From the NCBI GenBank assembly GCA_016235265.1, contig JACRLI010000015.1:133335-197334 (forward strand): 64,000 nucleotides of DNA. Direction: 5' to 3'. Shown piece by piece: positions 14,820-53,311 of this stretch (the stretch's first letter is position 1; the number at the start of each line of letters is the position of its first letter). The stretch comes from Candidatus Eiseniibacteriota bacterium. GTDB lineage: Bacteria; Eisenbacteria; RBG-16-71-46; JACRLI01. Under the pieces are notes generated by a model. The model was not told the DNA's origin. It did no database searches and worked only from the letters and a program-made list of their open reading frames with translations. The translations under genes and the position numbers were made by a program.

Positions 14820-16231
<1,412 letters not shown>

Positions 16232-16235
<4 letters not shown>

Positions 16236-20437: not shown

Positions 20438-20505
20438 GTTGCCCCCACTCGCGTTGGCCAGCCCGCCCCGGGGAAGTCCGGATGCCAGCGTCCAGCAGCG
20501 CTAAG

Positions 20506-20666: not shown

Positions 20667-22053
<1,387 letters not shown>

Positions 22054-22079
<26 letters not shown>

Positions 22080-23580
22080 GGCGCTTCTCCAGGGGCAGCT
22101 CGAGGGTGATGGTGGTGCCCCGGCCGGGGGTGCTCTCGGCGGAGATGCTGCCGCCGTGCTCGTGAATGATGGACTGGCAGATCGCGAGGCCCAGCCCGGT
22201 CCCCGTGGCGCGGGTGGTGAAGAACGGGTCGAACAGGCGCGGCAGGTGCTCGGCCAGGATCCCCTCGCCGGTGTCCGACACCCGCAGGCGCACCACCGGG
22301 CGCGCCGCCGCCGGCGGACCCTGCGGCAGCAGGCTGTCCTCGGCGCGCCGCCCGCCGGTGCGGCGGATGAACGGCGGGCTCTCCGCGAGGCGCGCATCCA
22401 GCGTGAGCTTGCCGCCGCGGGGCATGGCCTCGAGGGCGTTGCGGAACACGTTGAGCAACACCTGGATGAGCTGGTCGCCGTCGGCGAACACCTCGGGCAG
22501 CGGATCCTGTTCCTGGAACTCGATCACCACGCCCTGCCGGCCGGCGGCGTCGGCCACCAGTGCGAGCGCCTTGCGCGCGCAGTCCGGCAGCGAGACGCGC
22601 CGCAGCGTGAGGGTCCAGGGGCGCGCGTAGTCTAGCAACCCTGAAACGATCCTGTCCAGCCGGTTGACCTCGTCCTGGATCACGTCCAGGAAGCGACGGC
22701 GGTCGTCGCCCTCCTCCAGCCGGTTGCGCAGCACCTGCGCGCTGGTCGCGATGCCCGCGAGGGGATTGCGGATCTCGTGCGCCACGCCCGCGGAGAGCTC
22801 GCCCAGCACCGCCAGGCGGTCGCGCCGGCGCGCCTGTTCCTGCGCGCGGCGCTCCTGGCTGCGGTCGGAGATCACCACCGCGTGGCCCGCACCGCGGCCC
22901 AGCGGAACCGCGCGCAGCACCAGCGCCAGGCTGTGTCCGGTGGGGTGCGGCGCGCGCACCTCGAGGGCCACCCCCGGCGCCAGGGGCCATGGGAACCCGG
23001 CGTCCTGGCCCAGGGCCGCCGCGAGCGGGAGCCCCACGAGGCCGGCCGCCGGCACGCCCAGGATGTGAGCCGCCGAATCGCTGGCCGCGGTGACCGCGCC
23101 GTCGCCGGCCACCGTGAGCAGACCCTCCTCCAGCAGCGCGCCCGCCACGGCCCAGGCGTGCGCGCGCCGCGCGGCGTCCCACGTCTCGAACGCCGACCGC
23201 GCGGCGGACGCGGCCACCCGCCGGAGCGCGGCGCGCCGGCCGGGCGGCAGCGCGGCCCGCACGCGCACCAGCAGCACGCACGCGCGCCACGGGTCCGAGG
23301 GCCGATGCAGTGGGAACGGGGAGCCGGAGCCGGGGACCGTCTCCGCCAGGGCGGCGCGCAGCGCGCGGCGGCCGGCGGCGTCCAGGCGGCGGTGCGCCAG
23401 CGCGGGCGCCAGGCCGGGAAGGCGCCACGCCACGCCGAATGCGGTGACCCCGCGTTCTCGGGCCAGCAGATCCATGACAGGTTCGAAGAGTCGGGCCGGG
23501 GCGGGGACGGGGATCGGGACGGCGCTGCGGGCGCTGCGGGAGGCTCGGGGCTTCGGGACGGACGGACGGCGTTCGGTCAC
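22054..23580 (-). CDS. Sensor histidine kinase (cytoplasmic, N-terminal sensing region plus HisKA/HATPase_c)
   Basis: 508 aa; H-box LSAGVAHEIRNPLAGI; N/G boxes LLNVFRNALEAM...DTGEGI...GTGLGLAI; overlaps the RR start by 26 nt; N-terminal start uncertain. Confidence 0.85.
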
Positions 23581-25621: not shown

Positions 25622-25623
25622 GT

Positions 25624-25944: not shown

Positions 25945-25975
25945 CTCCCGCTCCTTGGGGTTTCGGGGTTGCCGG

Positions 25976-26443
25976 TCACCCGGCCTTGCGCATTTCCATT
26001 GCGCCGGGGCGCGTCTTCCACATCCGGACCCGGTTTTCACCCGGGCCGCGGACCACCTCCACGTTGTCCATCAGCCGCAGCATCAACGCCACCCCGCGCC
26101 CCCCCTCCAGCATCTCGCGGTTGCGTTCGGTGACGGACTGCAGGCGGCCCACGTCGAAGCCGTTCCCGCGATCCACCACGTCGAACCACACGCCGTCCTC
26201 GACGTCGCTCACCACCAGCTCCACGGTGCGGTCGGCCCGCCGGCTGTTGCCGTGCGTGATGGCGTTGTGCATCGCCTCGTTGACCGCCAGGTCGATCCGG
26301 AAGGTGTCCCTCCGGCTCCACCCGCTGGCGCGGAGGAATGTCCGCAGACCGTGGCTCACCCACGGCAGCATGGCCGGGTCGCTGGGCAGTTCCACCCGGA
26401 ACCAGTGTTGCGCCGCTCCCAGGCGGCCGGCGTCGCGGTTCAC
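25976..26443 (-). CDS. Anti-sigma regulatory factor / serine protein kinase (RsbW/SpoIIAB-like HATPase_c)
   Basis: About 155 aa from GTG at 26443 (GTGA overlap with the phosphatase stop). N-box AVNEAMHNAITHG, G-box VVDRGNGFD, GRGVALM motif. Confidence 0.75.
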   Translation of the reverse strand: MNRDAGRLGAAQHWFRVELPSDPAMLPWVSHGLRTFLRASGWSRRDTFRIDLAVNEAMHNAITHGNSRRADRTVELVVSDVEDGVWFDVVDRGNGFDVGRLQSVTERNREMLEGGRGVALMLRLMDNVEVVRGPGENRVRMWKTRPGAMEMRKAG

Positions 26444-27726
26444 TCCGCCCTCCCCACCAGCACGGTCAGGTCGTCCGAGACGCCCCCGGGCCCCGCGTAC
26501 AGCCGGACCTCCTCCACGATGCGCGCGGCCAGCTCCTTCACCGGCAGCCCGCGCGCGGCGCGCACGGTGGCCAGCAGCCGTTCCATCCCGAAGAGCGAGT
26601 CGTCGGGGCCGTGCGCCTCGGTCACCCCGTCGGTGTAGAACACCAGGAGATCGTCCGGCGCCAGCGTCACCTCGCCGGCCACGTAGGTCATCTCCGGGAA
26701 CTGGCCCAGCACGCCGCCCCGGGCGGTGAGCCAGGCCGGCTCGCCCTCGCGCGGCAGCCACAGCGCCGGGCAGTGCCCCGCGTTGGCGTAGCGAAAGGTC
26801 CGCGTGGCGGCTTCGTACAGCCCGTAGAAGAGCGTCACGAACACGGATGCGTAGCGCTCGGTGTCCTCGCACAGCGCCAGGTTGACGCCGCGCACCGCGC
26901 CCGCCGGGTCCGAGTGCAGCGCCGCCTCGCGGCGCACCAGGCTTCTCGTGGCCACCATGAACAGCGCCGCGGGCACGCCCTTGTCGGAGACGTCCGCCAC
27001 CACCACCCCCGCCGCGCCCCCCGGGCCGCGCACGAAATCGAAGTAGTCGCCCCCCACCTTGCCCATCGGGAAGTACGCGGTGGCCCAGCGGATGCCGGTG
27101 CCCTCCGGCTCGCGGCCGGGCAGCAGCGCCATCTGGACCTGCCGGGCGATGCCCAGCTCCCGCTCGAGCGCCTGCTTCTCGAGGTCCACCTGGTGCAGCC
27201 GGGCGTTCTCGATGGCCACGGTGGCCAGGCCCGCCAGCGCGCCCAGGCTGTCTGCGGCCGCGGCATCCAGGCCCTCGTAGGCCAGGTTGGCGATCACCAG
27301 CGCGCCGAGGGCGTGACCCTTGTGCCGCAGCGGAACCGCGACCAGCGACTCCAGGCTCACGCCCTGCGGCACGCTCTGGAAGCGCGGGTCGTGCAGGCAA
27401 TCCGGCGACCAGACCATCTCCCCGGTCCGCGTGACGCACTCGGGAACGGTCTCGCCTCCCTGGAGCCGCAGTTGCTCCAGCACGTCCCCTTCCAGGCCCC
27501 ATGCCACCCGCGCGTGCGGGGTCTCGGCCTCCAGCCACAGGCAGCCCACTTCGGCGCCCGCCATGTGCAGGGCCGCGTCCATCAGGGTGCTGAGGATCTG
27601 GTCCCGGTCGAAGGTGGAGGTGAGCAGCGCGGCCACATCCGTGAGTTCCCGGATGCGCGCCAGGCCCAGCTCCAGCTCCGCGCGGTCGTCCACGGCCGGC
27701 GCGGCCACCTTGATCGCCTGGAGCAC
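26440..27726 (-). CDS. GAF-domain PP2C-type serine phosphatase (RsbU/SpoIIE-like)
   Basis: 428 aa; N-terminal GAF; C-terminal PP2C/SpoIIE domain with metal-binding GGDYFDF...VADVSDKGVPAALFM...YTDGVTE. Confidence 0.85.
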   Translation of the reverse strand: MLQAIKVAAPAVDDRAELELGLARIRELTDVAALLTSTFDRDQILSTLMDAALHMAGAEVGCLWLEAETPHARVAWGLEGDVLEQLRLQGGETVPECVTRTGEMVWSPDCLHDPRFQSVPQGVSLESLVAVPLRHKGHALGALVIANLAYEGLDAAAADSLGALAGLATVAIENARLHQVDLEKQALERELGIARQVQMALLPGREPEGTGIRWATAYFPMGKVGGDYFDFVRGPGGAAGVVVADVSDKGVPAALFMVATRSLVRREAALHSDPAGAVRGVNLALCEDTERYASVFVTLFYGLYEAATRTFRYANAGHCPALWLPREGEPAWLTARGGVLGQFPEMTYVAGEVTLAPDDLLVFYTDGVTEAHGPDDSLFGMERLLATVRAARGLPVKELAARIVEEVRLYAGPGGVSDDLTVLVGRAE

Positions 27727-27748
27727 CGGCGCCCTCCCCCGCGGGCCG

Positions 27749-28612
27749 TCAGGCGGCCTGCGGGACCTCCGCGTCCGGCGTGCCCATCACTTCCTCCGCC
27801 TGCTTCCATTCCTTCTGGAACTCGACGGCCAGGTCCGCCGCGCGCTCGAAGGGCACGGTGGCCGCCTGCCACAGCGTGGCGTCCACGTCCGCCGCGGCCC
27901 GGCCCGCGTCCAGCGCGTGGGCCAGGGAATCCGCCAGCGCCACCAGGTGCACCAGCGGTTGGTGCTGCGCGTCCGCAGCGGCGGGTGAGTGGTGGTGAGT
28001 GATGGCCGCCACGATGACGTCGGGGAGCTTCCACTTGGTCGCCAGCCATCCACCCACCTCGCCATGCGAGGCACCCAGGAACTCCCGCTCGGCGTCGGAC
28101 GCGGAGTTCTGCCGCTCCTTCGCCGACGCCAGGGCCTCCTCGTATTCGACCGTGGCCACCACGTCGAGCACCAGCTTGCCCAGGTCGTGGACCAGGCCCG
28201 CGGACATCGCGGCTTCGCTGTCGCGGCCCACCGCGCGGGCCAGCACCCGGCCGCCCACGCCCACACCCAGCGAGTGCCGCCAGAACTCCTGGGGCTGGAA
28301 CGTCTTCGCCCCCGCGCCCGCGATCATGCGGTGCACGGAGGCGGACAGGGCCAGGCTGCGGATGGTGTTGAAGCCGAGCACCAGGGCGCACTGGGGCAGC
28401 GAGACCATCCCGTTGCGGCGGCCGAAGTACGCGGAGTTGGCCAGGCGCAGCATCCGGGCGGCGAGCGCCGGCTCCTGGCTGATCAGCTCGTTGAGCCGCG
28501 ACACGGAGGACTTGGGGTCGTCCACCGCCGCGATGATCTTGGTGACCACCACGGGGAGCGACGGCAGATTGGGAGTGCGCTCCACCTTCTGCTGGAGTTC
28601 GGCGAGTAGCAT
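27749..28612 (-). CDS. HDOD-domain signalling protein
   Basis: 287 aa; HDOD family (IIAAVDDPKSSVSRLNELISQEPALAARMLRLANSAYFG...LVHDLGKLVL...ITHHH). Confidence 0.8.
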   Translation of the reverse strand: MLLAELQQKVERTPNLPSLPVVVTKIIAAVDDPKSSVSRLNELISQEPALAARMLRLANSAYFGRRNGMVSLPQCALVLGFNTIRSLALSASVHRMIAGAGAKTFQPQEFWRHSLGVGVGGRVLARAVGRDSEAAMSAGLVHDLGKLVLDVVATVEYEEALASAKERQNSASDAEREFLGASHGEVGGWLATKWKLPDVIVAAITHHHSPAAADAQHQPLVHLVALADSLAHALDAGRAAADVDATLWQAATVPFERAADLAVEFQKEWKQAEEVMGTPDAEVPQAA

Positions 28613-32643: not shown

Positions 32644-32784
32644 TGGGAGATGACTCCTTGTGGTGCTTCACCATCCGTGGCGAAGCGGGTTTCCATACCC
32701 GAGGGTCTCGCAAGATCCCTCTGCGTTCGGGGATCCCATCGCCGGGCCGAGCTCCTCACCGGGGATCCAACCGTCTGGACTGGG

Positions 32785-32812
32785 TTTTCGGCATTACTCG
32801 CAGGAACTTTAG
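32785..32812 (-). promoter_or_regulatory. Sigma28 (FliA) promoter for fliC
   Basis: Minus strand reads TAAAGTT-N-GCCGAAAA with an exact 15-nt spacer between TAAA and GCCGAAAA (consensus TAAA-N15-GCCGATAA); about 140 nt upstream of the fliC ATG. Confidence 0.75.
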
Positions 32813-32937: not shown

Positions 32938-35829
32938 TCAGGCGGCTGCCCGCCCGGCCAGCGAGGGATCCGCGGCCAGGGCGCGCTCGTACGCCCCGGC
33001 GGCTTCGTCCTCGCGCCCCGCGGCCAGCAGCGCCAGGGCGTACTGCGACAGCAGCTGCGCGTCCGAAGCGTGCTGGGGCGTGAGCCTCTCGAACACCTTG
33101 AGACTCTCCGCCACGCGCCCCGCTTCCCGCAGCGCCACCGCACGCAGGAACTCGGTGTGCGGGTCGCCGCTGTCCTCGCGGAAGAGCTCCTCGAGCAATT
33201 CCAGCGCCTCGCCGGGCAGGTGGGCCCGGATCCGGGCGGCCGCCACGCGCGTGCGCAGTTCCCGCGGCGCCCCGACCACGCCCAGCGCGGCCAGCTCCAG
33301 GTCCCGCCCCTCGCGTTCCATCTGCTCGGCGATCCGCAGCGTGCACTGCCACGCGTTGTGCCGCGCGGGCTGAAGACCCGGGTCCAGCGACAGGGCGCGG
33401 TCGAAGGACTGCAGGGCCTCGCCGTAGCGTCCCGACTGGTACAGGGCGTTGCCCAGGTTGTAGCGGGCCAGCGCGGACTCCGGCTGCAGTTCCGCCGCGC
33501 GCATGTATTCGCGCACGGCCTCCCCGAAGCGGCCCAGGTAGTAGAGGCAGTTTCCGTGGTCCAGGCGCAGCGGGCCCTCGTCCAGGCTCTCCTCGCATGC
33601 CAGGCCCTGTCCCGAGGCCAGCAGCCTCCCCAGCAACTCCGCCGCGACCTGGTAGTCGCGCCCCATGAACTCGATGCCCGCGCGCAGGTAGGTCACCAGC
33701 GCGCTGTTCGGGCGGGCGGCCTCGGCCTCGTCCAGGTGGGAGCGGGCGGTCTCCCGGTTGCCCTCCGCGAGCGCGATCTGCGCCAGCTTGACGTGCGCCA
33801 GCGACAGGGCCTCGGGCGGCAGCGAGCGCCCGTGCAGCGAGGCCTCCAGCGGGATCACCGCGTCGGCGTTGCGTCCCAGCGCGAAGAGGGTCACGCCCAG
33901 ATGGAACAACAGGAACCGGTCCCCCGGACGTTCCGCGATCTCCCGGTGCAGCAGTCTCAGGTTGCGCTCCTGCTTGACGCGCAGCGTCTGCGCGTCCAGG
34001 CCGTAACCCGCGTGCAGGATGCGGATGTTGCTCCGCGCCAGCCGCGCCCCCCCCCGCACCAGCGAGGGAAGCACCTGCTCGTGCACCCGGCCCTCGAAGG
34101 CCACGCCCGGGAGCTTGCGGAACACGCGGCAGTAATGGTGGGACACCCCGCTCACCGCCTCGCCGTCGCGCATGCGGTTGGCGATCACCACCTCGGCCGC
34201 GTCCCAGCGCCCGCCGCGGAGCAGGGCCCGGAGTTCGTCCACGGAATCGGGGTCCAGCTCCTCGTCCGCATCCAGCACCAGCACCCACGGGCCCCGGGCG
34301 TGGGACAGCGCCAGGTTGCGCGGCGCGGAGAAGTCATCGTCCCAGGTGGTCGTGATCACCGCGGCGCCCATCGCGCGGGCCAGGTCGGGCGTGCCGTCCA
34401 CCGAGCCGGTGTCCACGACCACGATCTCATCAGCCACGCCGCGCACGCTGGCCAGCGCGCGCTCCAGCGAAGGCCGCGCGTCCCGCACGATCATGCACAC
34501 GCTCAGGTCCGCCCCGGTGACGCGGCTGCCGGAGACCAGCTCATCCTCGTCCATGGTCTCCTGCAACCGCAGCAGCTCGGCGTTTCCCGGCACGTGGGCC
34601 GCGCCCGACGCCAGCGCGGCGCGCGCCTCGTGGGGCCGGCCCAGCCCCATCAGCACGCGGGCCAGGGCCAGGTGCCCTTCGGGCAGGTGCGGTGTGAGCC
34701 GGGTGGCCTTCTCCAGGTGGGCCCGGGCGCTCTCCAGCTCCCCGGCCACCTCATCCAGCGACGCCAACTCCAGCAGCGCCTCCGCGGAGTTGGGCTGCAG
34801 GCGCAGCGCCGCCTCCAGGTGGGCGCGGGCGCGCGCCGGGTAGCCGCGGATCCGCTCGCACAGGGCCAGCTGCACGCGCACGTGCACCGGCTCGGCGTGG
34901 AAGTCCATCACCGCGTCGCTGGGCGGGGGCGGGGATTCCAGCAGCGAGGTCAGGATTTCCGCCGCGCGGGTGGGGTCGCCCGAGCGGCGGGCGGCCTCCG
35001 CCCGCAGCAACATCCCGCACTGCGTCCGGTCGTCCTCGCCGATCGCCTCCAGGGCCTCGGCGTTTCGCCCCGTCTCCAGGGCGCAGATGCACAGGTTCCA
35101 GTGCGCCTGCTGCAGGAACTCCGCTGGCAGCGGCGCCTCGAGCAGCCTGCGGAACAGGCCCCGGGCGCGCTCGTACTCGCCCATTGCCATCAGCGCGTTG
35201 GCGAGGTTGCGTTGCACCATGGGATCGTCGGAGCGCAGCCGCGCCTCCTCCTCCACGATGGCCAGGTTCCGCGCGCGGCGGGCCGGCTCGCGCTGCGGGT
35301 CGGCGTAACCGAGGTGGCGGATCACCACCGGGACGCGCTGGGCCGCCGCCGCCAGGGGCCCGTCCGGCCCGATCACCTGCTCGTGGAGCGCTCCCTCGAA
35401 GCGCACTCCCGGGAGGCGGCGGAAGACGCGGGGATAGTAGTGGGACAGCCACACTCCGGAATGGCGGTGCCGGGCCTCGCTCTCGATCCGCAGGCACATC
35501 GCCGGGAGGTACTCATCGGCATTTTCCAGGAACCGGCGCAGCCGCGCGCCGTTGAAGAAGTCGATGCGCTCGTCGGCGTCCAGGTACAGCACCCAGTCCC
35601 CGGTCGCCTGCGCCAGCGACGCGTTCCGTGCGGCGGCGAAATCGCCGGTCCACGCGAACCCGGACACCCGCGCGCCGGCGTCCCTCGCGATCTGCGCGGT
35701 GCGGTCGGTGGAGCCGGTGTCCACGACGATCATCTCGTCCACGAACTCGGAGGCCATCGCGAGGCACTCGCGCATGTGGACCTCCTCGTTCTTGACGATC
35801 ATGCACAGCGAAAGCCGGACCTCGGGCAC
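32938..35829 (-). CDS. Tandem-duplicated GT2 glycosyltransferase-TPR protein (two GT2 plus TPR modules), 963 aa
   Basis: Two copies of the family-2 glycosyltransferase DxD core (LSLCMIVKNEE...VVDTGSTDRT...LYLDADE and LSVCMIVRDARP...VVDTGSVDGT...LVLDADE), each followed by TPR repeats. Confidence 0.8.
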   Translation of the reverse strand: MPEVRLSLCMIVKNEEVHMRECLAMASEFVDEMIVVDTGSTDRTAQIARDAGARVSGFAWTGDFAAARNASLAQATGDWVLYLDADERIDFFNGARLRRFLENADEYLPAMCLRIESEARHRHSGVWLSHYYPRVFRRLPGVRFEGALHEQVIGPDGPLAAAAQRVPVVIRHLGYADPQREPARRARNLAIVEEEARLRSDDPMVQRNLANALMAMGEYERARGLFRRLLEAPLPAEFLQQAHWNLCICALETGRNAEALEAIGEDDRTQCGMLLRAEAARRSGDPTRAAEILTSLLESPPPPSDAVMDFHAEPVHVRVQLALCERIRGYPARARAHLEAALRLQPNSAEALLELASLDEVAGELESARAHLEKATRLTPHLPEGHLALARVLMGLGRPHEARAALASGAAHVPGNAELLRLQETMDEDELVSGSRVTGADLSVCMIVRDARPSLERALASVRGVADEIVVVDTGSVDGTPDLARAMGAAVITTTWDDDFSAPRNLALSHARGPWVLVLDADEELDPDSVDELRALLRGGRWDAAEVVIANRMRDGEAVSGVSHHYCRVFRKLPGVAFEGRVHEQVLPSLVRGGARLARSNIRILHAGYGLDAQTLRVKQERNLRLLHREIAERPGDRFLLFHLGVTLFALGRNADAVIPLEASLHGRSLPPEALSLAHVKLAQIALAEGNRETARSHLDEAEAARPNSALVTYLRAGIEFMGRDYQVAAELLGRLLASGQGLACEESLDEGPLRLDHGNCLYYLGRFGEAVREYMRAAELQPESALARYNLGNALYQSGRYGEALQSFDRALSLDPGLQPARHNAWQCTLRIAEQMEREGRDLELAALGVVGAPRELRTRVAAARIRAHLPGEALELLEELFREDSGDPHTEFLRAVALREAGRVAESLKVFERLTPQHASDAQLLSQYALALLAAGREDEAAGAYERALAADPSLAGRAAA

Positions 35830-35859
35830 GGTGTTCCTCCTCGATGCGCGCGGCGGCCG

Positions 35860-36657
35860 CTACGCCGCCCGCTGCGCCGTCTCCAGCCGCCGGAGCAGGC
35901 TGGGCAGCAGCGCCAGCTCCGGGTTGCGCCATTTCTGCTGGAACAGGGCGCGGTTGCGTTCGATCAACGCCATGTAGTCCACGCCCTCGGCGCGGAATGT
36001 GGCGCTGCCCTCGTGGTGCACGAAGCAGCTTTCCACCACCAGGCACTTCAGGCCCAGCAGGCGGGTCCTCAGGCAGTAGTCGTCGTCCTCGAAGTTGCCG
36101 ATCCCGAAGCGCTCGTCCCATTCGCCCACGGCGTCGGCCGTCTCCCGGGTGAAGGCGAGGCAGAAACCCACCAATCGCTCCACCTCGCGCACCGCGCCGA
36201 AGCGCGTGGCGGCCAGGGTGCGGGCCACGCCGTCGGGCCCGCCGCTGCGCGCGTAGTCCACCGGGACGCACTGCGCACCGGAGCAGTTGTTGGTGAGCGG
36301 GCCCGCCAGCCCCGCGCCGGGCAACGCCAGCGCCTCGTGCAGCTCCTCCAGCCAGCCCGGAGTGACCTGCACGTCGCTGTTGAGCAGCACCAGCGTCCCG
36401 CCGCGGGAAGCGTCCACCAGCTGGTTGACGGCAGCCGCGAAGCCGCGGTTCCCGGGATTCACGATCAGGCGCACGTCGCGGCCGGCGAGGTCCTCGCGCA
36501 CGTCCGCGCGGGAGCCGTTGTCCACGATCACGATCTCGTGGGGCTGCCGGGTGTGGCGGCCGATGCTCTCGAGAGCCAGCCGCAGCAGCGGCAGCTGGTT
36601 CCATACCGGCACCAGGATGGACGTGAGCCGGGGTTCGATTCCGCGTTCAACCGGCAA
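35860..36657 (-). CDS. GT2-family glycosyltransferase (probable TTG start overlapping upstream stop)
   Basis: About 265 aa; TSILVPVWNQ...IVIVDNGS...LNSDV...FGIGNFEDDDYCLR family-2 GT motifs. Confidence 0.7.
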   Translation of the reverse strand: MPVERGIEPRLTSILVPVWNQLPLLRLALESIGRHTRQPHEIVIVDNGSRADVREDLAGRDVRLIVNPGNRGFAAAVNQLVDASRGGTLVLLNSDVQVTPGWLEELHEALALPGAGLAGPLTNNCSGAQCVPVDYARSGGPDGVARTLAATRFGAVREVERLVGFCLAFTRETADAVGEWDERFGIGNFEDDDYCLRTRLLGLKCLVVESCFVHHEGSATFRAEGVDYMALIERNRALFQQKWRNPELALLPSLLRRLETAQRAA

Positions 36658-39529
36658 GGGGCAGTTCCTCCTCCCCGGCGGCGCCCAGCAGGCGCAGCCG
36701 GTCGTGGATGTCCTCGTTTCGCGGGGCCAGCTTGCGGGCCAGGTGGAAGCACTGCACCGCCATGTCCGTGCGCCCGATGGAGAGCAGGCAGTCCCCGGTG
36801 TCCAGCAGCGCCTCAGGATCCTGTGGATCCAGTTCGAGCAGCCGGGAGAACGCCCCGGCGGCCTCCTCCCCGCGCCCCAGGTGGCGGAGCACGTGGGCCA
36901 GGTGGCCCAGCGCCCGTCGCGAGCGCGGGGCGCGTCGCACGGCCTCCGCGAATTCCCGGGCCCCGGCTTCGAAGTCTCCGCAAGCGCAGCGCGCAATCCC
37001 CAGCAGCAGCGCCAGTTCCGCCGGCCCGTCGCCCGTGGCGTGGGCGGCCTCGAGGCGTGCCACCGCCTCGCGCACGAGCCCCGCGTCGAGCTCTTCCGAT
37101 GCGGCGCGCAGCAGCGCGCGCACCGCGGGGTCGCCCGCCTCGGGCAGGTCCGGCACGGCGCGCACCGGCGGGTGCCCCAGCAGGAAGTACTCCGCCGCGG
37201 TCACGCCCCACTTGAGGGCGAACGCCCGCGCCGCCGAAGGCGCGCCTTCCTCCGGGTCCCCGCCGTCCACGTGCACGTAGGTGTCGCGGGCCACCGTGAG
37301 CCCCAGGCCCGACTCCCGGGCCCGCAGGCAGAAGTCGTCCACGGCCGCCTGCCCGTCCAGCGCCTCGTCCAGCTCGCCGATGCGCTCCACCACCTCGCAC
37401 CGGAGCGCCAGGCATTCGGGACGGAGCCCGGGAGTGTCCGCGTAGTCCATCCGCCGCAGCGCGCGCAGCTGCGCCGCGGCCTCCGCCGGCCCGGCCGAGC
37501 AGAGCGCCTCGCCGACCGCCTGGGCGCCGGAGGGCACCGGCAGCAGCGGGCCGGCCATGCCGGCCGCGTCCCGGTCGGCCAGCGCCCCCAGGAGCCCCTC
37601 GAGCCACCCGGCGGTCACCCGGGCCCGGTCGTCGAGCAGCACCACGAAGCGTCCCTTGGCCGCGCGCACGGAGGCGTTGGCGGCGCGGGACAGGCCCGGG
37701 GCGGACCCGGTCCCGACCGCGCGCGCACCCAGCCGCGCCAGCTCCGCGGGGAATGCCCCGCAGCCCGGGTCCCAGGCCACCAGGATTTCGTGGGACAGCG
37801 TCGTGTGGCGGCGCACCGCCTCCGCGCACTCCGCGGCCTGGCGCACGCCATGCCCGGGCAGGAGCACCACGGAGGTGAGGCCGACGGGCAGCACCTCCGT
37901 GCGCGGCCCCCCGCCCCGGCGGCGCCAGCAGGTCAGGAACCCGTCCTCGAGATGCACCGGATGAACGTCGGGCCGCACCCGCCCCGCCCACCGGGCGTTG
38001 AGCACCTTGGCGTTGTGCGACATGCGCGAGAAGCGCTCCGGGCCGCCCATGGACTCGTGGTGCGTGAGGACGCTGCGGGGTCGGTACACCACGCGGAAGC
38101 CGTGGGCCCGGGCGCGGAAGCACAGGTCCACGTCCTCGAAGCCGTTCCAGTAGGCGGGATCGAAACCGCCCAGCGCGTCGAACAATTCCCCGCGAACCAG
38201 GCAGCACGCCGCGGTGACCACCTGGAAGTCCCGCGGACGGTCCACGTGCGGGGCCCCGGCCGGGTCGTGCTGGTAGATGTGGAACCCGGTCACCCCCTGC
38301 GGGAAGTCGGGGTTGCCGGCCACCGTCACGCCGGCGTGCTGGATGGTCCCGTCGGGGAACAGCAGCTTGCTGCCCGCGATCCCCACCGTGGGGTCCTGGT
38401 CCAGCGCCTCCACCAGCGGCCCGAGCCAGCCCGGGTGCGCCTCGGTGTCGTTGTTGAGCAGCAGCACGTGGCAACCGGCGGCCGCGCGCGCGCCCTGGTT
38501 GCAGGCCCTCGCGAACCCGACATTCACCGGGTTGCGGATCAGCCGGATGCGCGGCAGGAACTCCGCCAGCGCCTCGCGCGGGTCCTCCACCGAGGCGTTG
38601 TCCACGACCACCACCTCGAAGCTGGCCCCCGCGGGGACGGAGAAGAGCGAGGCGAGACACTGCCGCGTCCATTCGGACTTCCCGTAGGCGGGGATCACCA
38701 CGGTGGCGTCGGGACGCTTCGTGGCCGGGTCGCACCGCCACGCGGAGGGCCGCAGGTCCGGGAAGCCGCGCAGGCCGGCGGCCGCGCCCGCGCCGCACGC
38801 GGTGCACTCCAGCGGACGGCATTCGCGGCCGGTGGCGCAAACCGCGGCGGCGGCGCAGGCCGGGCACAGCAGGGCCGGCGCCAGCGCCTCCGCCACGGCG
38901 GCCGGGCCGGAGCCCGGGAGCCCGGAGAGGCTGTCGAGCACGGGCACCCGGGGCTCCAGGCGCGTGAGGACCACCAGCGTGCGCCCCGAATCCGGGGAGG
39001 CCGTGGACCGAGCCAGGCGCGCCCACGCGCCGCGCTGCGAGCGCAGCGCGCGGCTCACCTCGGGGCGCACCTCGGGCAACCGGTCGGCCTGGGCGGCGGC
39101 GCACTCCACCGCCGCGCTGCCCCAGGGGAGCCTGCGGGTCTCGAAGCGCCCGTCGGAGCGGGCGTGCCACTCGATTCTCCCGGCCAGGCCCGCGGGGGCG
39201 GCCACCACCACCAGCTCCGCGGCCACCCGCATCGCGGCGGTGAGGATCGCCTCCAGTTCCCCTTCCGCCAGGTCGGCGCCGGCGTCGGTCCACGCCACGG
39301 CCCGCACCGCGCCCTCGCGCAGCGCCGGCCGGGCGGGATCGCCCAGCAGCGTGATCTCCGCCCGCCCCGGACGCGCCCCGTACACCGGCCCCAGGCCCAG
39401 GTGCGGCGCGTCCCACGCCCCATTCCACCCGTCCCGGCCGTGCCGCAGTTCCAGCACCGAGGAGCAGTCCAGGCCGGCGTCCTCCAGGAATCCGGTCAGC
39501 GGCGCCCAGCGCACCACGTCACCCAGCAT
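36647..39529 (-). CDS. Multi-domain glycosyltransferase (Cys-rich zinc-ribbon-like motif, two GT2-like domains, TPR C-terminus), 960 aa
   Basis: CPACAAAAVCATGRECRPLECTACG Cys cluster; GT2 core (TVVIPAYGKSEW...VVVVDNAS...LLLNNDTEAHPGWL...DVDLCFRA); second Rossmann-like GT-A region; TPR repeats. Confidence 0.75.
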   Translation of the reverse strand: MLGDVVRWAPLTGFLEDAGLDCSSVLELRHGRDGWNGAWDAPHLGLGPVYGARPGRAEITLLGDPARPALREGAVRAVAWTDAGADLAEGELEAILTAAMRVAAELVVVAAPAGLAGRIEWHARSDGRFETRRLPWGSAAVECAAAQADRLPEVRPEVSRALRSQRGAWARLARSTASPDSGRTLVVLTRLEPRVPVLDSLSGLPGSGPAAVAEALAPALLCPACAAAAVCATGRECRPLECTACGAGAAAGLRGFPDLRPSAWRCDPATKRPDATVVIPAYGKSEWTRQCLASLFSVPAGASFEVVVVDNASVEDPREALAEFLPRIRLIRNPVNVGFARACNQGARAAAGCHVLLLNNDTEAHPGWLGPLVEALDQDPTVGIAGSKLLFPDGTIQHAGVTVAGNPDFPQGVTGFHIYQHDPAGAPHVDRPRDFQVVTAACCLVRGELFDALGGFDPAYWNGFEDVDLCFRARAHGFRVVYRPRSVLTHHESMGGPERFSRMSHNAKVLNARWAGRVRPDVHPVHLEDGFLTCWRRRGGGPRTEVLPVGLTSVVLLPGHGVRQAAECAEAVRRHTTLSHEILVAWDPGCGAFPAELARLGARAVGTGSAPGLSRAANASVRAAKGRFVVLLDDRARVTAGWLEGLLGALADRDAAGMAGPLLPVPSGAQAVGEALCSAGPAEAAAQLRALRRMDYADTPGLRPECLALRCEVVERIGELDEALDGQAAVDDFCLRARESGLGLTVARDTYVHVDGGDPEEGAPSAARAFALKWGVTAAEYFLLGHPPVRAVPDLPEAGDPAVRALLRAASEELDAGLVREAVARLEAAHATGDGPAELALLLGIARCACGDFEAGAREFAEAVRRAPRSRRALGHLAHVLRHLGRGEEAAGAFSRLLELDPQDPEALLDTGDCLLSIGRTDMAVQCFHLARKLAPRNEDIHDRLRLLGAAGEEELPLAG

Positions 39530-40538
39530 CTCGGCCTCCGTCCGGTCGCCTTTCGTGGCCGGCCGCCTCGCGGCGGGCCAGCTCGTCCAGCGCGTACACC
39601 GTGCGCTCCGCCTCTTCCAGCGTCACCGCGGCCTCGCACGGGAAGCTCAGCGCGCGCCGCAGGTACTCCACCGCGCCGGGAAAGCTCCGCCGCACGTGAG
39701 GATCGTCGGGGTCCAGCCCCAGGGCCAGCCGCAGCTGCGGCCGCGCCACGCGCACGCCGCGCGCGTGCAGCTGGCGCGCCCATGCCGCGTTGGGATAGGC
39801 CGTCGAGCCGAACAGCACCCGCACCGTGTAGCGCGGCCACGTGCCGCGGGTGCCGCGCGCGTACTCGGGCAGGCGGACGCCATCCAGCGGGCCCCAGGCG
39901 GATTCCCAGAGCGCGGCCAGGCGGCGCTGCCCCGCGACGCGCGCGGGAAGGGCCGCCAGGAATTCCTCCAGCGCCGGATCGGCCGGCGCCCCCACCTCAA
40001 CGGAGGGCGGGGGCAGCTTGCGACCCGCCTCCTCCACCGTGCCCGCGTCGGCCGAGGCGATGCGCGCCGCGCGGTCGGGACCGTGCAGCAGCACCGCGTC
40101 GGCGTGGGCCCCCGGAAGGAAGCCCTGGGCCATCGCCCCCAGCGACTCGCGCACCTCCTCGACCACCACCGCGTCACGGCGCCGGGCCAGGGCGGCCAGT
40201 TGCGGTCCGTCCGGCGGCAGGCCGTCCACGTCGGCGCACCACAGGGCCTCGAAGCCCCGGCCTTCGCGGGCCACCGAGGACACATCCAGGCGCCCGGTGT
40301 CGGGATCCACATCCAGCGGGACCACGTCACAACCGCCCCGCCTCAGAGCCTCGGCGGCCTGCGTGCAGCCCCACACCGGCAGCGCCACGCGCGCGCCGGG
40401 CCCCAGGCCCAGCGTGCGCGACAGCGCCTGCGCGGCGGTGCGGAACGGGACCGGTCGGGTCAGCGCGACCACCTCCAGGTGGTCCTCCAGTCCCTCGGGC
40501 AGCCCCGCGGGGCGGATCGGCTGGCGCAGCGCGCTCAC
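39519..40538 (-). CDS. DegT/DnrJ/EryC1-like (PLP-dependent sugar aminotransferase-like) protein, possibly degenerate
   Basis: 339 aa from GTG at 40538 (GTGA overlap); VALPVWGCTQAAEALRRGGCDVVPLDVDPDTGRLD resembles the DegT motif (PSFTF.A...G..PVFVDID..T.NID); assignment is tentative. Confidence 0.45.
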   Translation of the reverse strand: MSALRQPIRPAGLPEGLEDHLEVVALTRPVPFRTAAQALSRTLGLGPGARVALPVWGCTQAAEALRRGGCDVVPLDVDPDTGRLDVSSVAREGRGFEALWCADVDGLPPDGPQLAALARRRDAVVVEEVRESLGAMAQGFLPGAHADAVLLHGPDRAARIASADAGTVEEAGRKLPPPSVEVGAPADPALEEFLAALPARVAGQRRLAALWESAWGPLDGVRLPEYARGTRGTWPRYTVRVLFGSTAYPNAAWARQLHARGVRVARPQLRLALGLDPDDPHVRRSFPGAVEYLRRALSFPCEAAVTLEEAERTVYALDELARREAAGHERRPDGGRDAG

Positions 40539-41515
40539 GAGGCGGCTCTCCAGGCCGCGCCGCGGGCATCGCGGGTTCGGCCCGCGTCCGCGGCGGCCCA
40601 GGCGCGCATCTCGCGCAGCCCTTCCCGGAGCGTCACCGACGGGGCCCAGCGCAGCAGCCGCGCCGCGAGCGAGGGGTCCCCGCGCATGCGGCCGATCTCG
40701 GCCAGCGGCGCGGGGTGGGTGACGAAGGTGTAGCCGACCCCCGCCGACATGGAGCGCCCCAGCTCGGAGAGGCGCGTCTCCTCGCCGGAGGCGGCGTGCA
40801 CCACCGTGCCGTGCACGCGGAGATCCTCGCCCATCTCGGCCAGCAGCCGCGCCACGTCCCGGGCGTGCACGAAGTCGCGGCTCTGACGGCCGTCGCCGTG
40901 GATCTTCACCTTCTCGCCGCGGGCGACGCGGCGGGCGAACGTGGCGATCACGCTGTCGTCCTCCTCCCCTTCGGGAACGGGGCCGTACGCGCCGAACACC
41001 CGGCACACCGAAACCGGCAAACCGTGGGTGTGATCGCAGGACAGCGCCAGCTGCTCGGCCGCCAGGAGCGCCGCGGCGCGCGGTGTGCGCGCCGCGGTGG
41101 GCCAGGACTCCGACTGCTTCTCCCGGCCGCGGTAGGGCTCCAGCACCTCGGAGCTGCCCGCGAGCACCAGCCGCGCCCGGTGCGCCCGGCACGCCTCCAC
41201 CACCTCCAGCGCCTCGCCGACCACGCGGCGGAACGCCTCACGCGGCGACGCGTCCGCGGCGGAGGCACGCGGCACCTGCCAGAAACACACCGCCGGCCGC
41301 TCCGAGAACACCGGCAGCAGCTCCTCGGGGTTGCCCACGGCGCCCGCGCTGAAACCCAGGAATCCCTCCCGGCCCGCCAGCTCCGCGTACCCGCGGGCGG
41401 AGGCCTCCGACCTGCCCAGCACGCGCACCGAGTGTCCGCGCGCCAGCCACTCGGCGACCAGCGCGTGGCCCAGGGCGCCCGAGCCGCCGACCAACGCCGC
41501 GCTCAGGCCGCGCAC
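40535..41515 (-). CDS. NAD-dependent epimerase/dehydratase (SDR family)
   Basis: About 326 aa from GTG at 41515; glycine-rich NAD motif VGGSGALGHALVAEWLARGHSV; epimerase C-terminal region. Confidence 0.65.
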   Translation of the reverse strand: MRGLSAALVGGSGALGHALVAEWLARGHSVRVLGRSEASARGYAELAGREGFLGFSAGAVGNPEELLPVFSERPAVCFWQVPRASAADASPREAFRRVVGEALEVVEACRAHRARLVLAGSSEVLEPYRGREKQSESWPTAARTPRAAALLAAEQLALSCDHTHGLPVSVCRVFGAYGPVPEGEEDDSVIATFARRVARGEKVKIHGDGRQSRDFVHARDVARLLAEMGEDLRVHGTVVHAASGEETRLSELGRSMSAGVGYTFVTHPAPLAEIGRMRGDPSLAARLLRWAPSVTLREGLREMRAWAAADAGRTRDARGAAWRAAS

Positions 41516-44103
41516 GCCTCCGCCTTCCCGGGGCGCGGCGCAGGCCGGGCCCGCAGCGCCTCCTCCAGGCCCTCCACCAGGTCCATCCGGCTTTGGGCGC
41601 GCGCGCGGCGCAGCGCCTCGGCGGTCGCGTCCCGCGCCCCGGCGTAATCGCCCATGCGCGCCAGGAGGTCGGCGCGCCGCAGGGCCGGCGCGAGCTCGCC
41701 GGGCATCAGCTCGCACAGGCGCGCATAGCCGCTGGCCGCCACCGGCAGGTTCCCGTGGGTCTCCGCGAGGCGCGTGGCCTCGGATACCGCCCAGGTGTTG
41801 GCGGGCTCCAGGTTGATCGCCTGCTGGTACTGTCCGACGGCGTCCTGCACCCGCCCGGCGGCCTCCAGCACGCGCCCGCAGGCCACCAGCAGCACGGCGG
41901 GTCGCGGGGTTTCAAGCAACTCCCGCCGCATCAGCTCGCCCGCGGCGCCGAAGTCGCGCATGGCGGCCAGGGAGAGCGCCAGGCCGGACACGGCCCCGGG
42001 CAGGTGCGGATGGGCGCCCAGCACGCGGGCGAAGATTTCCGACGCGGCCTCGGGGGAGTTGGACTCGAGCAGTTCGTGCCCGCGGCTCATGGCGTCGGCC
42101 AGGTGCACCGGATCGCCCAGGTCGCGCTCCTCCCGGGGCCCGTCCGGTCCCAGGCCCAGAGCGGGTCCGAGGAGGCTGGCGATGCGCTCGTCGCCATGCG
42201 CCTCTCGCACCAGCTCGCGCCCCGCGCGCGAAAGCGCCTCCCACGCCTCCTTCGAGTCGTACAGCTCCGCGATGGCGCGGGCGAACCCCTCGGGGTCCGA
42301 TGCGATCCTCGCGTTCCGCCCATCCACCAGGTGCATGCCCTCGGCGCCCACCGGGGTGGTCACGCACGGCAGGCCGCAGCCCAGCGCCATGGCGATCTTG
42401 CCCTTGAGCCCCGCACCGTAGCGCAGCGGGGCGATCGAGACGCGGGCCCCGGAGAGGTACGGGGCCAGGTCGGGAACGTAACCGGTGACCTCGATGTCCC
42501 CTCCGTGGAGCCGCCGCACCGATTCCGGCGGGCGGTCACCCACGATGCGCCAGCGCACGCCGGGCAGCAGTTCGCGCACCCGGGGCCACACCTCGGCGTG
42601 GAACCACGCCACCGCGTCCACGTTGGGCAGGTGGCGGAAGCCCGCCAGGAACACCAGGTCGCGGCGCGCCTCGAAACCGGGCTCGTGCTCGTCCACGTGG
42701 TAGACGTCGGGCACCACGCGCACGTCGCGATCCGGCAGGTGGCGCAGCAGCTCGAGTCGGTCGTCCTCGGTGACGGTCAGCACGGTGTTGGCGCAGCGGT
42801 AGGCCGCCAGTTCCCGGGCCTGCATCTGACGGAACGGCCTCCAGGTCTCCGGGAGGTCCTCCTGGCGCGCGCGGCGGGCGTGCCGCAGGAAATCGAGGTC
42901 CACCGAGTCGATCACGATGCGCGTCCGCGGACTCTCCTGGATCAGCCGGGGAATGAGGCGCAGGGCCGACTCGTAGAACGGCAGCAGCGCGACGTCGTAG
43001 TCGCGACCCGCGAGCAGCGCGCCCATCGCCGCGGAGGGGTCCACCCGCGGCGGGCTGCCCTGCAGCGGGCGGTCCAGCGGGTACACCATCACTCCCGTGG
43101 CGCGCAGCCGCTCCACGTAGGGAGCCAGATCGATGCCTTCGTGCTCCCCGCTGTGCAGGCAGGCCACGGTCACGTGGTGGCCGCGCTCCGCGAGGAGCCG
43201 CACCATGTTGTGGATGCGCTGGAAGCCGGAGGCGCGGTCGAAGAGCGGCGGGATCTCGTGGAACATCAGCACCTGGCGGCCCGAGATGCGGTGCGCCGCG
43301 CGCGCGGTCTCACGCGGGTCGCGGGTCACGACCGGCTGGAGGCGCAGTTCCGCGGTCCACTTCTCGAGGAACTTGGGCCGGTTGACGGCCTGGAACTTCT
43401 TGAATCCGGACTCGGTGTCGCGGCCCGCGGTCACGCCCTCGTGATGCACCACCCGTGCGGCGGGCTGGTAGACCACCCGCAGGCCCTCGCGGCGCGCGGC
43501 GAAACACAGGTCGGTGTCTTCGTAGTAGGCGGGCGCGAAGCGGCGGTCGAAGCCACCCAGCTTCCGGAACAGGCTGGCGCGCGCCAGCAGGCAGGCGCCG
43601 GAGCCGTAGTCCACCTCGCGGACGTAGGCGTACTCGGGAGCCTCGGGATCGCCGCCGCGGCCGTAGTTGCATCCGGTGGCGTCGGAGAAGAGGATGCCGC
43701 CCGCCTCCTGCAGCGTGCCGTCGGTGTTGAGCAGGCGCGCACACACGACTCCCGCGGTGGCGTCGCGCTCGGCGGTATCCACCAGCGCCTCGAGCCAGCC
43801 GGGCGCGGGGAGGGTGTCGTTGTTGAGGAACACCAGGTACTCGCCGCCCGCGACCTCGGCAGCGCGGTTGTTGCCGTCCACGAAGCCGAGGTTCTCCGGG
43901 CTGGAGATCACCTGCATGGCGCCCTCGGGGAGGCTGCCCCGGAACGCCGCCAGCCAATCCCCGGTGCCGTCGGTGGACGCGTTGTCCACCACCACCAGTT
44001 CGTAGAGGCCGGCGGGCGTGACGTCGCGCACCCGCTCCAGGCAGGCGCGGGTGTGCGCGAGGTGGTTGAAACAGACGACCAGGATGCTGGCTTTCGGCGG
44101 CAT
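41503..44103 (-). CDS. Multi-domain glycosyltransferase (GT2 plus GT4-like plus TPR), 866 aa
   Basis: ATG at 44103 with GAGGAG RBS; N-terminal GT2 (ILVVCFN...VVVDNAS...FLNNDT...YYEDTDLCF); central GT-B/GT4-like region (GAGLKGKIAMALGCGLPCVTTPVGAEG); C-terminal TPR. Confidence 0.8.
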   Translation of the reverse strand: MPPKASILVVCFNHLAHTRACLERVRDVTPAGLYELVVVDNASTDGTGDWLAAFRGSLPEGAMQVISSPENLGFVDGNNRAAEVAGGEYLVFLNNDTLPAPGWLEALVDTAERDATAGVVCARLLNTDGTLQEAGGILFSDATGCNYGRGGDPEAPEYAYVREVDYGSGACLLARASLFRKLGGFDRRFAPAYYEDTDLCFAARREGLRVVYQPAARVVHHEGVTAGRDTESGFKKFQAVNRPKFLEKWTAELRLQPVVTRDPRETARAAHRISGRQVLMFHEIPPLFDRASGFQRIHNMVRLLAERGHHVTVACLHSGEHEGIDLAPYVERLRATGVMVYPLDRPLQGSPPRVDPSAAMGALLAGRDYDVALLPFYESALRLIPRLIQESPRTRIVIDSVDLDFLRHARRARQEDLPETWRPFRQMQARELAAYRCANTVLTVTEDDRLELLRHLPDRDVRVVPDVYHVDEHEPGFEARRDLVFLAGFRHLPNVDAVAWFHAEVWPRVRELLPGVRWRIVGDRPPESVRRLHGGDIEVTGYVPDLAPYLSGARVSIAPLRYGAGLKGKIAMALGCGLPCVTTPVGAEGMHLVDGRNARIASDPEGFARAIAELYDSKEAWEALSRAGRELVREAHGDERIASLLGPALGLGPDGPREERDLGDPVHLADAMSRGHELLESNSPEAASEIFARVLGAHPHLPGAVSGLALSLAAMRDFGAAGELMRRELLETPRPAVLLVACGRVLEAAGRVQDAVGQYQQAINLEPANTWAVSEATRLAETHGNLPVAASGYARLCELMPGELAPALRRADLLARMGDYAGARDATAEALRRARAQSRMDLVEGLEEALRARPAPRPGKAEACAA

Positions 44104-44161
44104 GGCTCCTCGCGCGGAAATGGAAGACGGATGGCCGGGCGGGCCGGACATCCTGCGGAGA

Positions 44162-44176
44162 GCAACCGATGTGCCA
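44162..44176 (-). promoter_or_regulatory. Sigma54 -24/-12 promoter for the glycosyltransferase island
   Basis: Minus strand reads TGGCAC-ATCGG-TTGCT (exact consensus), about 58 nt upstream of the 44103 ATG. Confidence 0.75.
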
Positions 44177-44313
44177 TGCGGGAAGGCAATCGAAGCGAGG
44201 GGCTATCTTACGGAATGCCTTGAGGAAGCGCCGGGGCCGGGAAATGGCCACCGGGCGGAACGGAAAAGGGCGCCGGCGGATAAGCCACCGGGCGCCCAGA
44301 ATCTGGCCGAGGA

Positions 44314-53261: not shown

Positions 53262-53311
53262 GACGTTCACCTCCGCGGCGGCCGGATAGACCTGTCCGGC
53301 AGCCGGAATCG

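Follow-up and report, generated by a model that had tools for sequence, protein, structure and literature searches.

A candidate GmaR-like flagellin glycosylation island between csrA and fliC in an uncultured member of Candidatus Eiseniibacteriota

Genes of the csrA-fliC island

The window analysed here, a 64-kb stretch of ~72% G+C from a metagenome-assembled genome (MAG) of Candidatus Eiseniibacteriota (assembly GCA_016235265.1, contig JACRLI010000015.1, positions 133,335 to 197,334), is essentially one large flagellar and chemotaxis cluster, as shown by Pfam scans of nearly all open reading frames (ORFs) with a high G+C content at third codon positions (GC3). Six genes on the minus strand (G1 to G6, 44103..32938) lie between csrA and fliC and form an island that encodes a total of seven glycosyltransferase (GT) domains and three proteins bearing tetratricopeptide repeats (TPRs). 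This island, a candidate operon for the glycosylation of flagellin, is the subject of this report. The GC3 frame plot, the translations and Pfam place the six genes exactly in the slot given in a preliminary description of the DNA, with flgN-flgK-flgL-fliW-csrA upstream and fliC-fliS-fliD-flaG downstream (Pfam of the neighbours). The domains assigned there to the GT proteins (GT2 plus GT4 plus TPR; GT2-like domains plus TPR; and a GT2) were also found by Pfam. The promoter, the genes of the island and the flagellin gene that follows are listed below.

44161..44176, minus strand: sigma54 (-24/-12) promoter of the operon, TGGCAC-ATCGG-TTGCT (TGGCACATCGGTTGCT), an exact match
41503..44103, minus strand: G1, 866 aa, with a GT2 domain (3-222), a GT-B/GT4 domain (~297-645; Pfam GT4/GT1) and TPRs (~670-830), from Pfam
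40535..41515, minus strand: G2, 326 aa, with the fold of the short-chain dehydrogenases/reductases (SDRs), NAD-dependent epimerase family (Pfam Epimerase)
39519..40538, minus strand: G3, 339 aa, with a weak and partial DegT match over residues 39-147 only (Pfam)
36647..39529, minus strand: G4, 960 aa, with an orphan N-terminal region (1-215), a CPxC-N16-CxxC zinc ribbon (222-245), two GT-A domains (275-515 and 530-775) and TPRs (800-947), from Pfam and an AlphaFold2 (AF2) model
35860..36657, minus strand: G5, 265 aa, a single GT2 domain (Pfam)
32938..35829, minus strand: G6, 963 aa, two tandem GmaR-like units of GT2 plus TPR (GT domains at 1-200 and 437-632; Pfam)
32785..32811, minus strand: sigma28 promoter of fliC, exact TAAAGTT-N12-GCCGAAAA
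31804..32643, minus strand: fliC, 279 aa, the proposed acceptor (Pfam Flagellin_N and Flagellin_C)

The start and stop codons of successive genes from G1 to G5 overlap by 13, 4, 11 and 11 nt, and G6 follows G5 after a gap of 30 nt that contains a Shine-Dalgarno (SD) sequence, in agreement with the translational coupling described earlier. The TTG start of G5 is backed by orthologs of 266-270 aa. The island had also been described as ending about 300 bp before the sigma28 promoter of fliC. The box lies ~125 bp from the end of G6, and the distance of 295 bp is that to the fliC ATG. Horizontal acquisition of these genes was rejected as an explanation of the island, since its G+C content (0.71-0.79) matches that of the window and the csrA-fliC slot of Gemmatimonas also holds GT genes.

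G6 relates the island to GmaR, an enzyme that puts O-linked N-acetylglucosamine (O-GlcNAc) on Listeria flagellin and consists of an N-terminal GT domain of ~180 aa followed by TPRs, a linker and an anti-repressor domain (PMC9638930). A phmmer search matched the first GT domain of G6 to that of GmaR (PDB 22ao_A) with an expectation value (E) of 4.4e-27 and 98 bits, aligning residues 6-197 with 11-200, and G6 matched the peptide glycosyltransferase SunS (PDB 7msn) with an E of ~1e-14. Alignment of one half of G6 with the other gave 33% identity over 383 aa (E 1e-37), which upholds the earlier reading of this 963-aa protein as an internal tandem duplication of a GT2-TPR unit. Both units contain the DxD motif in the form LDADE, aligned with IDADE of GmaR, and D84, A85 and D86 are invariant across 24 diverse GmaR-like GT domains (alignment A1). 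Each GT2 domain is directly followed by TPRs (Pfam TPR families). This order is the architecture of GmaR (PMC9638930). TPRs serve as a marker of flagellin glycosyltransferases in the literature (PMC7591256, PMC13317340), where they are regarded as the region of such enzymes that captures flagellin, and "GT2 domains with TPR repeats" have been used to predict those of Clostridium (PMC13317340). Among the top 120 homologs of G6, 118 contain two to four GT units (81 with three, 35 with two and 2 with four). The GT-TPR architectures, which had been called unusual, are thus not so. More than 3000 homologous proteins were found at an E of 1e-10.

Other properties separate G6 from its two characterised relatives. 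A PDB search with the full-length protein found no counterpart of the GmaR linker or anti-repressor region, the GT domain being the sole GmaR match, and Pfam scans across the window revealed no MogR-type repressor. This makes G6 a GmaR-like transferase and not a GmaR ortholog. The best NCBIfam model for G6 was the SunS family TIGR04195 (117.3 bits against a cut-off of 350), and neither a glycocin precursor nor an exporter was found in the island, leaving G6 outside the SunS family. From its domain homology, G6 is a candidate flagellin-directed (priming) glycosyltransferase.

The other GT proteins share modules with each other and with related loci. Orthologs of G1 are present in the related contigs L001 and L083, and homologs containing GT2 and GT4 domains adjoin GmaR-like genes in Ignavibacteria. 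In subtype, the GT2 domain of G1 agrees with the first GT-A domain of G4, and G5 agrees with the second (FEDDD motif). G5 is similar both to this second domain and to modules of the multi-GT proteins of Ignavibacteria. Structure prediction of the 960-aa G4, a check set beforehand, gave confident models of the two GT-A domains and the TPRs, with a low-confidence N-terminal region and a mean predicted local distance difference test score (pLDDT) of 78 (AF2). Foldseek matched the pair of GT-A domains to the two-domain polymerases K4CP (E 6e-17) and PmHS2 (1e-13) and then to the polypeptide GalNAc-transferases (ppGalNAc-Ts), and each of the two domains taken singly also resembles the latter. The Cys cluster of G4 is a conserved CPxC-N16-CxxCG zinc ribbon. 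A HMMER search with the N-terminal 275 aa of G4 returned only 3 cluster representatives among 1.84e9, all of them orthologs, and a profile of the N-terminal ~270 aa matched only zinc ribbons in the PDB (E ~0.01 to ~1). Weak Methyltransf_25 matches were found by Pfam in 2 of 5 G4 orthologs and none in the window copy; a degenerate methyltransferase-like domain at the N terminus would be a guess.

The two remaining genes encode proteins that look catalytically degenerate. G2 keeps the Rossmann GxxGxxG motif as GGSGALG (residues 10-16), and its alignments with SDR structures begin at residue 8. It has lost the catalytic YxxxK motif. Three separate alignments with solved SDR structures, Pal (6bwl) among them, show Arg in place of the Tyr and Leu in place of the Lys: TPRAAALLAAE of G2 aligns with SPYAGSKIAAE, SPYAAGKVAGE and SPYAAAKAGGD. 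The ortholog in the related contig L084 also lacks Tyr and Lys (TPAAAALVAAE). From these alignments, G2 looks like an atypical SDR or a pseudoenzyme. The gene is absent from the L001 and L083 loci. There, a 230-bp gap with a second sigma54 box (TGGCATGCGGATTGCG) replaces G2 before the DegT-like gene (L001 5173-5399; L083 9772-10001).

The family of G3 has only 9 members, and all 9 have a deletion of ~24 aa over the SFHPxK segment of the Schiff-base lysine in comparison with the PseC-like P0250 and P0251. HMMER aligned only residues 35-150 of G3. The AF2 model of G3 (pLDDT 76) nevertheless has the type I fold of a sugar aminotransferase, with template modelling (TM) scores of 0.65-0.70 to perosamine synthase, WbpE and DesV in Foldseek. 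The NCBIfam scores are low for both proteins, at 28.8 bits for G3 against the PseC cut-off of 423.5 and 59.2 bits for G2 against the LegB cut-off of 475. Canonical dehydratase/epimerase and transaminase chemistry by G2 and G3 is unlikely because, judging from the alignments, the catalytic Tyr and Lys of the one and the pyridoxal phosphate (PLP)-lysine segment of the other have been lost. The pyridoxamine phosphate (PMP)-dependent dehydratases ColD and E1 also lack this lysine, and some non-canonical chemistry is conceivable. The "SDR epimerase" and "DegT-like" protein of the preliminary description thus retain their folds and families, but a role in sugar modification is not supported, G2 being without Tyr and Lys and G3 without the PLP-lysine segment.

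In FliC, Flagellin_N and Flagellin_C stand almost back to back, and 22 of the 65 central residues (34%) are Ser or Thr, as shown by the composition and by the alignment with the FliC of L001. The operon recurs in the csrA-fliC slot of four related contigs (L001, GCA_025351485.1; L083; L084; and the P0002 contig), followed by a 279-aa fliC, fliS and fliD. The arrangement of G6 and fliC seen in the window is also present in the P0002 contig, L001 and L002.

A wider survey of loci, with one genome per species, used the peptide pattern DEx[VI][VI][VLC]DTGS derived from the 24 diverse GmaR-like GT domains and gave at least 595 loci. A flagellin-like ORF lies within 10 kb in 36 of the best 80, which come from many phyla, and in 24 of the 44 loci fully flanked by at least 8 kb on both sides; the weaker matches in these counts are perhaps partly FlgL, and the chance expectation of ~1% is a rough estimate of our own. 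In many cases, this ORF directly adjoins the GT gene and is encoded on the same strand. In the Ignavibacteria loci, a GT2+GT4+GT2 protein and a GmaR-like GT-TPR protein are followed by fliC, fliS, fliD and flaG. In a Gemmatimonas phototrophica MAG (L042, 292-13618), the slot is as in the window, with the order flgL-fliW-csrA, a 2029-aa GT, a 1361-aa protein of three GmaR-like units and fliC. This last slot is found in a phylum with cultured members. Together, the sampled loci suggest that the GmaR-like GT2-TPR module is very widespread, is usually concatenated two to four times per protein, lies beside a flagellin gene in about half of the loci and is often accompanied by more multi-domain GTs.

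Promoters, regulators and the surrounding cluster

The sequence TGGCACATCGGTTGCT at 44176..44161 is the sole exact match in the window to the sigma54 consensus tested (TGGCAC-N5-TTGCW, with the GG of -24 and the GC of -12 at canonical spacing), against 0.01 expected from shuffles, so the exact promoter TGGCAC-ATCGG-TTGCT reported earlier stands. The box TGGCACGCGGATTGCT precedes the G1 orthologs of L001 and L083 at the same position as in the window. When the csrA-G1 spacers of the window, L001 and L083 were aligned, the box stood out as the main conserved block of a spacer that has a mean column identity of 70% overall, a value raised by the near-identical L001/L083 pair, and is otherwise poorly conserved. 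Another block, AGATAGCCC, lies ~30 nt upstream of the -24 element in the window (~44200-44208, minus strand) and in L001 (~2490-2498) and is also kept in L083; the remaining spacer is not conserved. The predicted transcription start coincides with the ATG at 44151. Therefore, the start of G1 is likely the ATG at 44103, as had been assumed, with the SD sequence GAGGAG and a predicted 5' untranslated region of ~47 nt. Further regulatory features of the window are as follows.

44262..44297, minus strand: terminator-like hairpin and UUUU after csrA, read from the sequence, separating the island from the flgN-csrA operon
14756-14771, minus strand: one-mismatch sigma54 box before flgB
20505-20520, minus strand: one-mismatch sigma54 box before a CheY-like response-regulator gene
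53310-53325, minus strand: one-mismatch sigma54 box before flgF
14820..16232, minus strand: NtrC-type sigma54 activator (REC-AAA+-HTH; Pfam Sigma54_activat, Response_reg and HTH_8) with an adjacent histidine kinase (pair 14820-17632)
20667..22397, minus strand: second NtrC-type sigma54 activator (Pfam), in the flagellar cluster with a histidine kinase (pair 20667-23580)

The hairpin after csrA folds as GGGCGCC.GGUGG-loop-CCGCCGGCGCCC, followed by UUUUCC, with a z-score of only -1.5, and was not called by a consensus terminator scanner. A generic terminator and promoter scanner gave nothing useful in this window of 72% GC.

Four further sigma54 boxes were found in the window with one mismatch allowed, and three of them, those listed, lie 40-80 nt upstream of genes on the coding strand. 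The island box and the boxes of flgB, flgF and the response-regulator gene together outline a putative sigma54 flagellar regulon. The two activator-kinase pairs are arranged like FlrBC/FleSR, and either activator is a candidate for the activation of the island promoter. Because the island box is conserved, boxes precede flgB, flgF and the regulator gene, and two enhancer-binding regulators are encoded in the cluster, the expression of the early and middle flagellar genes of this cluster plausibly depends on sigma54, as does that of the island, with fliC being sigma28-dependent. Control of the island by the flagellar sigma factor, as proposed in the preliminary description, is supported by the invariance of the box in L001 and L083, by the similar boxes and by the two NtrC-type activators. 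The related GT loci of other phyla do not generally have a sigma54 box before the GT genes. Sigma54 control is therefore a feature of the lineage and not of the family.

The fliC promoter matches the sigma28 pattern TAAAGTT-N12-GCCGAWAA, with 0 matches expected by chance, and a TCAAGTTT-N11-GCCGATGA box is found at the equivalent position before fliC in L001. Folding of the spacer between G6 and fliC gave no significant structure (z = +0.7), and no terminator is claimed after G6. The 5' leader of fliC (32644-32775, minus strand) contains the GGA-loop hairpins GGGUAUGGAAACCC and CUUCGCCACGGAUGGUGAAG and a further GGA in the SD sequence, and these GGA elements are also present in L001 (13040-13115). 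The hairpins look like putative CsrA binding sites, in keeping with the position of fliW-csrA just upstream of the island.

The flagellar genes of the window include fliN, fliM, fliL, motB, motA, flbD, flgE and flgD, as well as fliJ, fliI, fliH, fliG, fliF, flgC and flgB. The cluster also contains cheR, CheY-like receivers, flgM and the two NtrC-type activators, each with its histidine kinase. Around the island, the order is flaG, fliD, fliS, fliC, the island, csrA, fliW, flgL, flgK and flgN, and further genes are flgJ-like, flgI, flgH, flgA, flgG and flgF. The segment 6204-7915, between flgD and an MgtE_N-like gene, has the highest G+C content of the window (0.77-0.82) and only Pro/Ala-rich ORFs; it is probably fliK. 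The minus strand at 23603-28612, between the chemotaxis and regulator genes and flgM, encodes a HEAT-repeat protein of 672 aa, a GAF-SpoIIE phosphatase and an HDOD protein; the plus strand has another GAF-SpoIIE gene at 53475-55841. The two GAF-SpoIIE genes, with the HEAT-repeat and HDOD proteins, may form a partner-switching or regulatory module tied to motility.

Interpretation of the island and rival explanations

The island is probably an operon for the O-glycosylation of flagellin by GT2-TPR (GmaR-like) enzymes. The preliminary description had proposed glycosylation of flagellin or of a flagellar sheath. The homology to GmaR, the synteny with fliC and the linkage across phyla support flagellin as the target, and nothing bears on a sheath.

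Several observations weigh against this interpretation. The host is an uncultured organism represented by a MAG, so that the interpretation rests on sequence comparison. Genes for a nucleotide-sugar pathway are missing from the island, where the two candidate sugar-pathway enzymes, G2 and G3, both look inactive. The PDB search detected no similarity between the TPR regions of G6 and the TPR domain of GmaR; the binding of flagellin by G6 therefore rests on analogy. The GT-B motif KGKxxEAL of the Ignavibacteria homologs reads KGKIAMAL in G1 (residues ~560-575) and KGKITNAL in L001, with the conserved Glu replaced by Met and Asn, respectively, and from this substitution the GT-B domain of G1 may be impaired or altered in specificity. 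The rpoN gene is not in the window. About half of the GmaR-like GT loci have no flagellin gene within 10 kb, and the family is therefore not restricted to flagellin loci.

From the domain content, the homology to GmaR, the synteny, the conservation of the promoter and the loss of catalytic residues, we infer an acceptor, sugars, an order and a series of biochemical steps as follows. RpoN and one of the flagellar NtrC-type activators would transcribe the six genes at the stage of the rod genes, and the enzymes would be in the cytoplasm, all six products being presumably soluble, before sigma28 turns on fliC after completion of the hook-basal body. The TPRs of G6 would capture unfolded or chaperone-free FliC, and its predicted inverting GT-A domains would add the first sugar to Ser or Thr residues of the central segment. 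By analogy with GmaR, this sugar may be a beta-linked N-acetylhexosamine (HexNAc) or a hexose from a housekeeping uridine diphosphate (UDP)-sugar. The donor sugars would come from housekeeping pools because the island has no genes for a working sugar pathway. The five GT domains outside G6 (the GT2 and GT-B of G1, the two GT-A of G4 and the GT2 of G5) would then lengthen the sugar to an oligosaccharide or modify further sites, with the TPRs of G1 and G4 holding both enzymes on the one substrate. The glycosylated FliC would be handed to FliS and then exported. G2 and G3 would not work as an epimerase and an aminotransferase and are probably kept as accessory subunits that bind nucleotide-sugar or set specificity.

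The acceptor could be a protein other than the filament flagellin, such as FlgL, FlgK, FliD, the hook, a pilin or several exported proteins, in which case the adjacency of fliC would reflect co-regulation only. The share of GmaR-like GT loci without a flagellin-like ORF within 10 kb, about half, fits this explanation, as does the relative SunS, which glycosylates a peptide, and the specificity of TPRs is not readable from sequence. However, the GT gene is most often the immediate same-strand neighbour of fliC, FliC itself has a Ser/Thr-rich exposed segment, and GmaR, which alone among characterised enzymes with such a GT domain is encoded in a flagellar locus, acts on flagellin (PMC9638930); another acceptor is thus unlikely. 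An island that makes a cell-surface or extracellular polysaccharide (exopolysaccharide, capsule or glycolipid) and is sited in the flagellar cluster by chance is still less probable. Pfam found no priming (phosphoglycosyl) transferase, flippase, polymerase or exporter in the island, and no membrane-helix-like hydrophobic stretch is present in any of the six proteins. The GT2 and GT4 domains are admittedly generic, the best NCBIfam names are those of exopolysaccharide or PEP-CTERM glycosyltransferases, all scoring far under their cut-offs, and the tandem GT-A pair of G4 is like that of the polymerases K4CP and PmHS2. Nevertheless, TPRs occur in three of the four GT proteins, G6 shares homology with GmaR and SunS, the synteny with fliC is kept across phyla, and the promoter is conserved and of the flagellar sigma54 type.

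A regulatory role is suggested by GmaR itself, which is bifunctional (PMC9638930): G6, and perhaps the other TPR proteins, would be mainly regulators, as GmaR is through its anti-repressor half, and their glycosyl transfer would be of minor importance or lost. G2 and G3 show that catalytic decay happens in the operon. This is highly improbable, given that G6 has no similarity to the linker and anti-repressor of GmaR, that the Pfam scans of the window contain no MogR-type repressor, and that both units of G6 keep the D-A-D residues and the other invariant GT residues.

An extension of flagellin glycosylation by the island would be that the seven GT domains, which include the K4CP/PmHS2-like tandem GT-A pair of G4, are tethered to flagellin through the TPRs and assemble a repeating polymer or a long oligosaccharide on this minimal protein of D0/D1 only, as a coat that replaces the outer protein domains, with G2 and G3 as specificity or scaffold subunits of a multi-enzyme "factory". 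We regard this extension as doubtful. If it is true, the arrangement may recur in the fliC-adjoining multi-GT loci of Ignavibacteriota, Gemmatimonadota and Calditrichota. The island is compact and well delimited: a single promoter serves six genes with seven GT domains, the proposed acceptor is 279 aa long, and a dedicated sugar pathway is absent. This makes it a suitable system for the study of cooperation among TPR-tethered enzymes that share a protein substrate. G2 and G3 provide two clean cases of enzyme folds retained without their catalytic residues.

Comparison with known glycosylation systems

Experimental work on flagellin glycosylation has been almost entirely on the Maf and nonulosonic-acid systems, together with a small number of GT2 enzymes from pathogens (GmaR and FgtA). 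The Maf systems with pseudaminic (Pse) or legionaminic (Leg) acid share with the island the purpose of O-glycosylating flagellin before its export, and Maf-1 uses a TPR domain (bioRxiv 10.1101/2023.12.03.569772). Pfam found no Maf domain (MAF_flag10) in the six proteins or in the other scanned ORFs of the window, and no nonulosonic-acid pathway was found in the window, where the NCBIfam scores of G2 and G3 are far under the PseC and LegB cut-offs. The island is thus not one of the well-studied Maf/Pse/Leg systems, as the preliminary description had held.

In the FgtA systems, a GT2 enzyme (CD0240 of C. difficile, PA1091 of P. aeruginosa) adjoins fliC and is needed for the first sugar, and nearby genes elaborate the glycan (PMC11833859; bioRxiv 10.64898/2026.02.12.704994). 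By description, the island is alike in having a GT2 beside fliC and elaboration genes nearby. However, the FgtA systems add a phospho-(methyl)threonine from cytidine diphosphate (CDP)-activated donors, homologs of those genes are not found here, and the elaboration genes of the island are more GTs. FlmG of Caulobacter crescentus is expressed before the late flagellar steps, and its TPR domain binds all six Caulobacter flagellins (PMC7591256). The capture of flagellin by TPRs and its modification by a GT in the cytoplasm are the features that FlmG and the island, as proposed, have in common. FlmG differs in its N-terminal TPR, its GT-B domain and its use of pseudaminic acid, whereas the priming candidate of the island is a GT-A/GT2 enzyme. 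In G1, compared with FlmG by description, the order is reversed, with GT-B before TPR, and a GT2 domain is added.

Two other comparisons concern single proteins. The SunS-family S-glycosyltransferases resemble G6 in combining GT-A with a helical repeat domain, and SunS acts on a polypeptide. G6 differs in scoring below the 350-bit cut-off, in having no precursor or exporter nearby and in its flagellar context. K4CP and PmHS2 resemble G4 in the two tandem GT-A domains of one chain. The global TM scores are poor (0.19-0.30), and G4 has in addition the zinc ribbon, the orphan N-terminal region and the TPRs; a polymerase activity of G4 would be pure speculation.

The closest likeness is to GmaR (Lmo0688 of Listeria monocytogenes), a beta-O-GlcNAc transferase and MogR anti-repressor. 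GmaR and G6 have homologous N-terminal GT-A/GT2 domains of ~190 aa with a DxD motif, followed by TPRs, and the two systems are alike in a gene located in the flagellar cluster, a short flagellin (~280 aa) as the known or proposed acceptor and an enzyme that is, or is predicted to be, cytoplasmic and soluble. In contrast to GmaR, G6 has two GT-TPR units per chain and no detected linker, anti-repressor or MogR, and the island is a six-gene operon with five further GT domains and a sigma54 promoter instead of control by MogR, DegU and temperature. The island is not architecturally unprecedented, belongs to GmaR-like GT2-TPR flagellin glycosylation and overturns no current view. What is new is the combination of a tandem-unit candidate priming enzyme, two more TPR multi-GT proteins, seven GT domains, two conserved pseudoenzyme folds and a conserved sigma54 promoter in an uncultured phylum.

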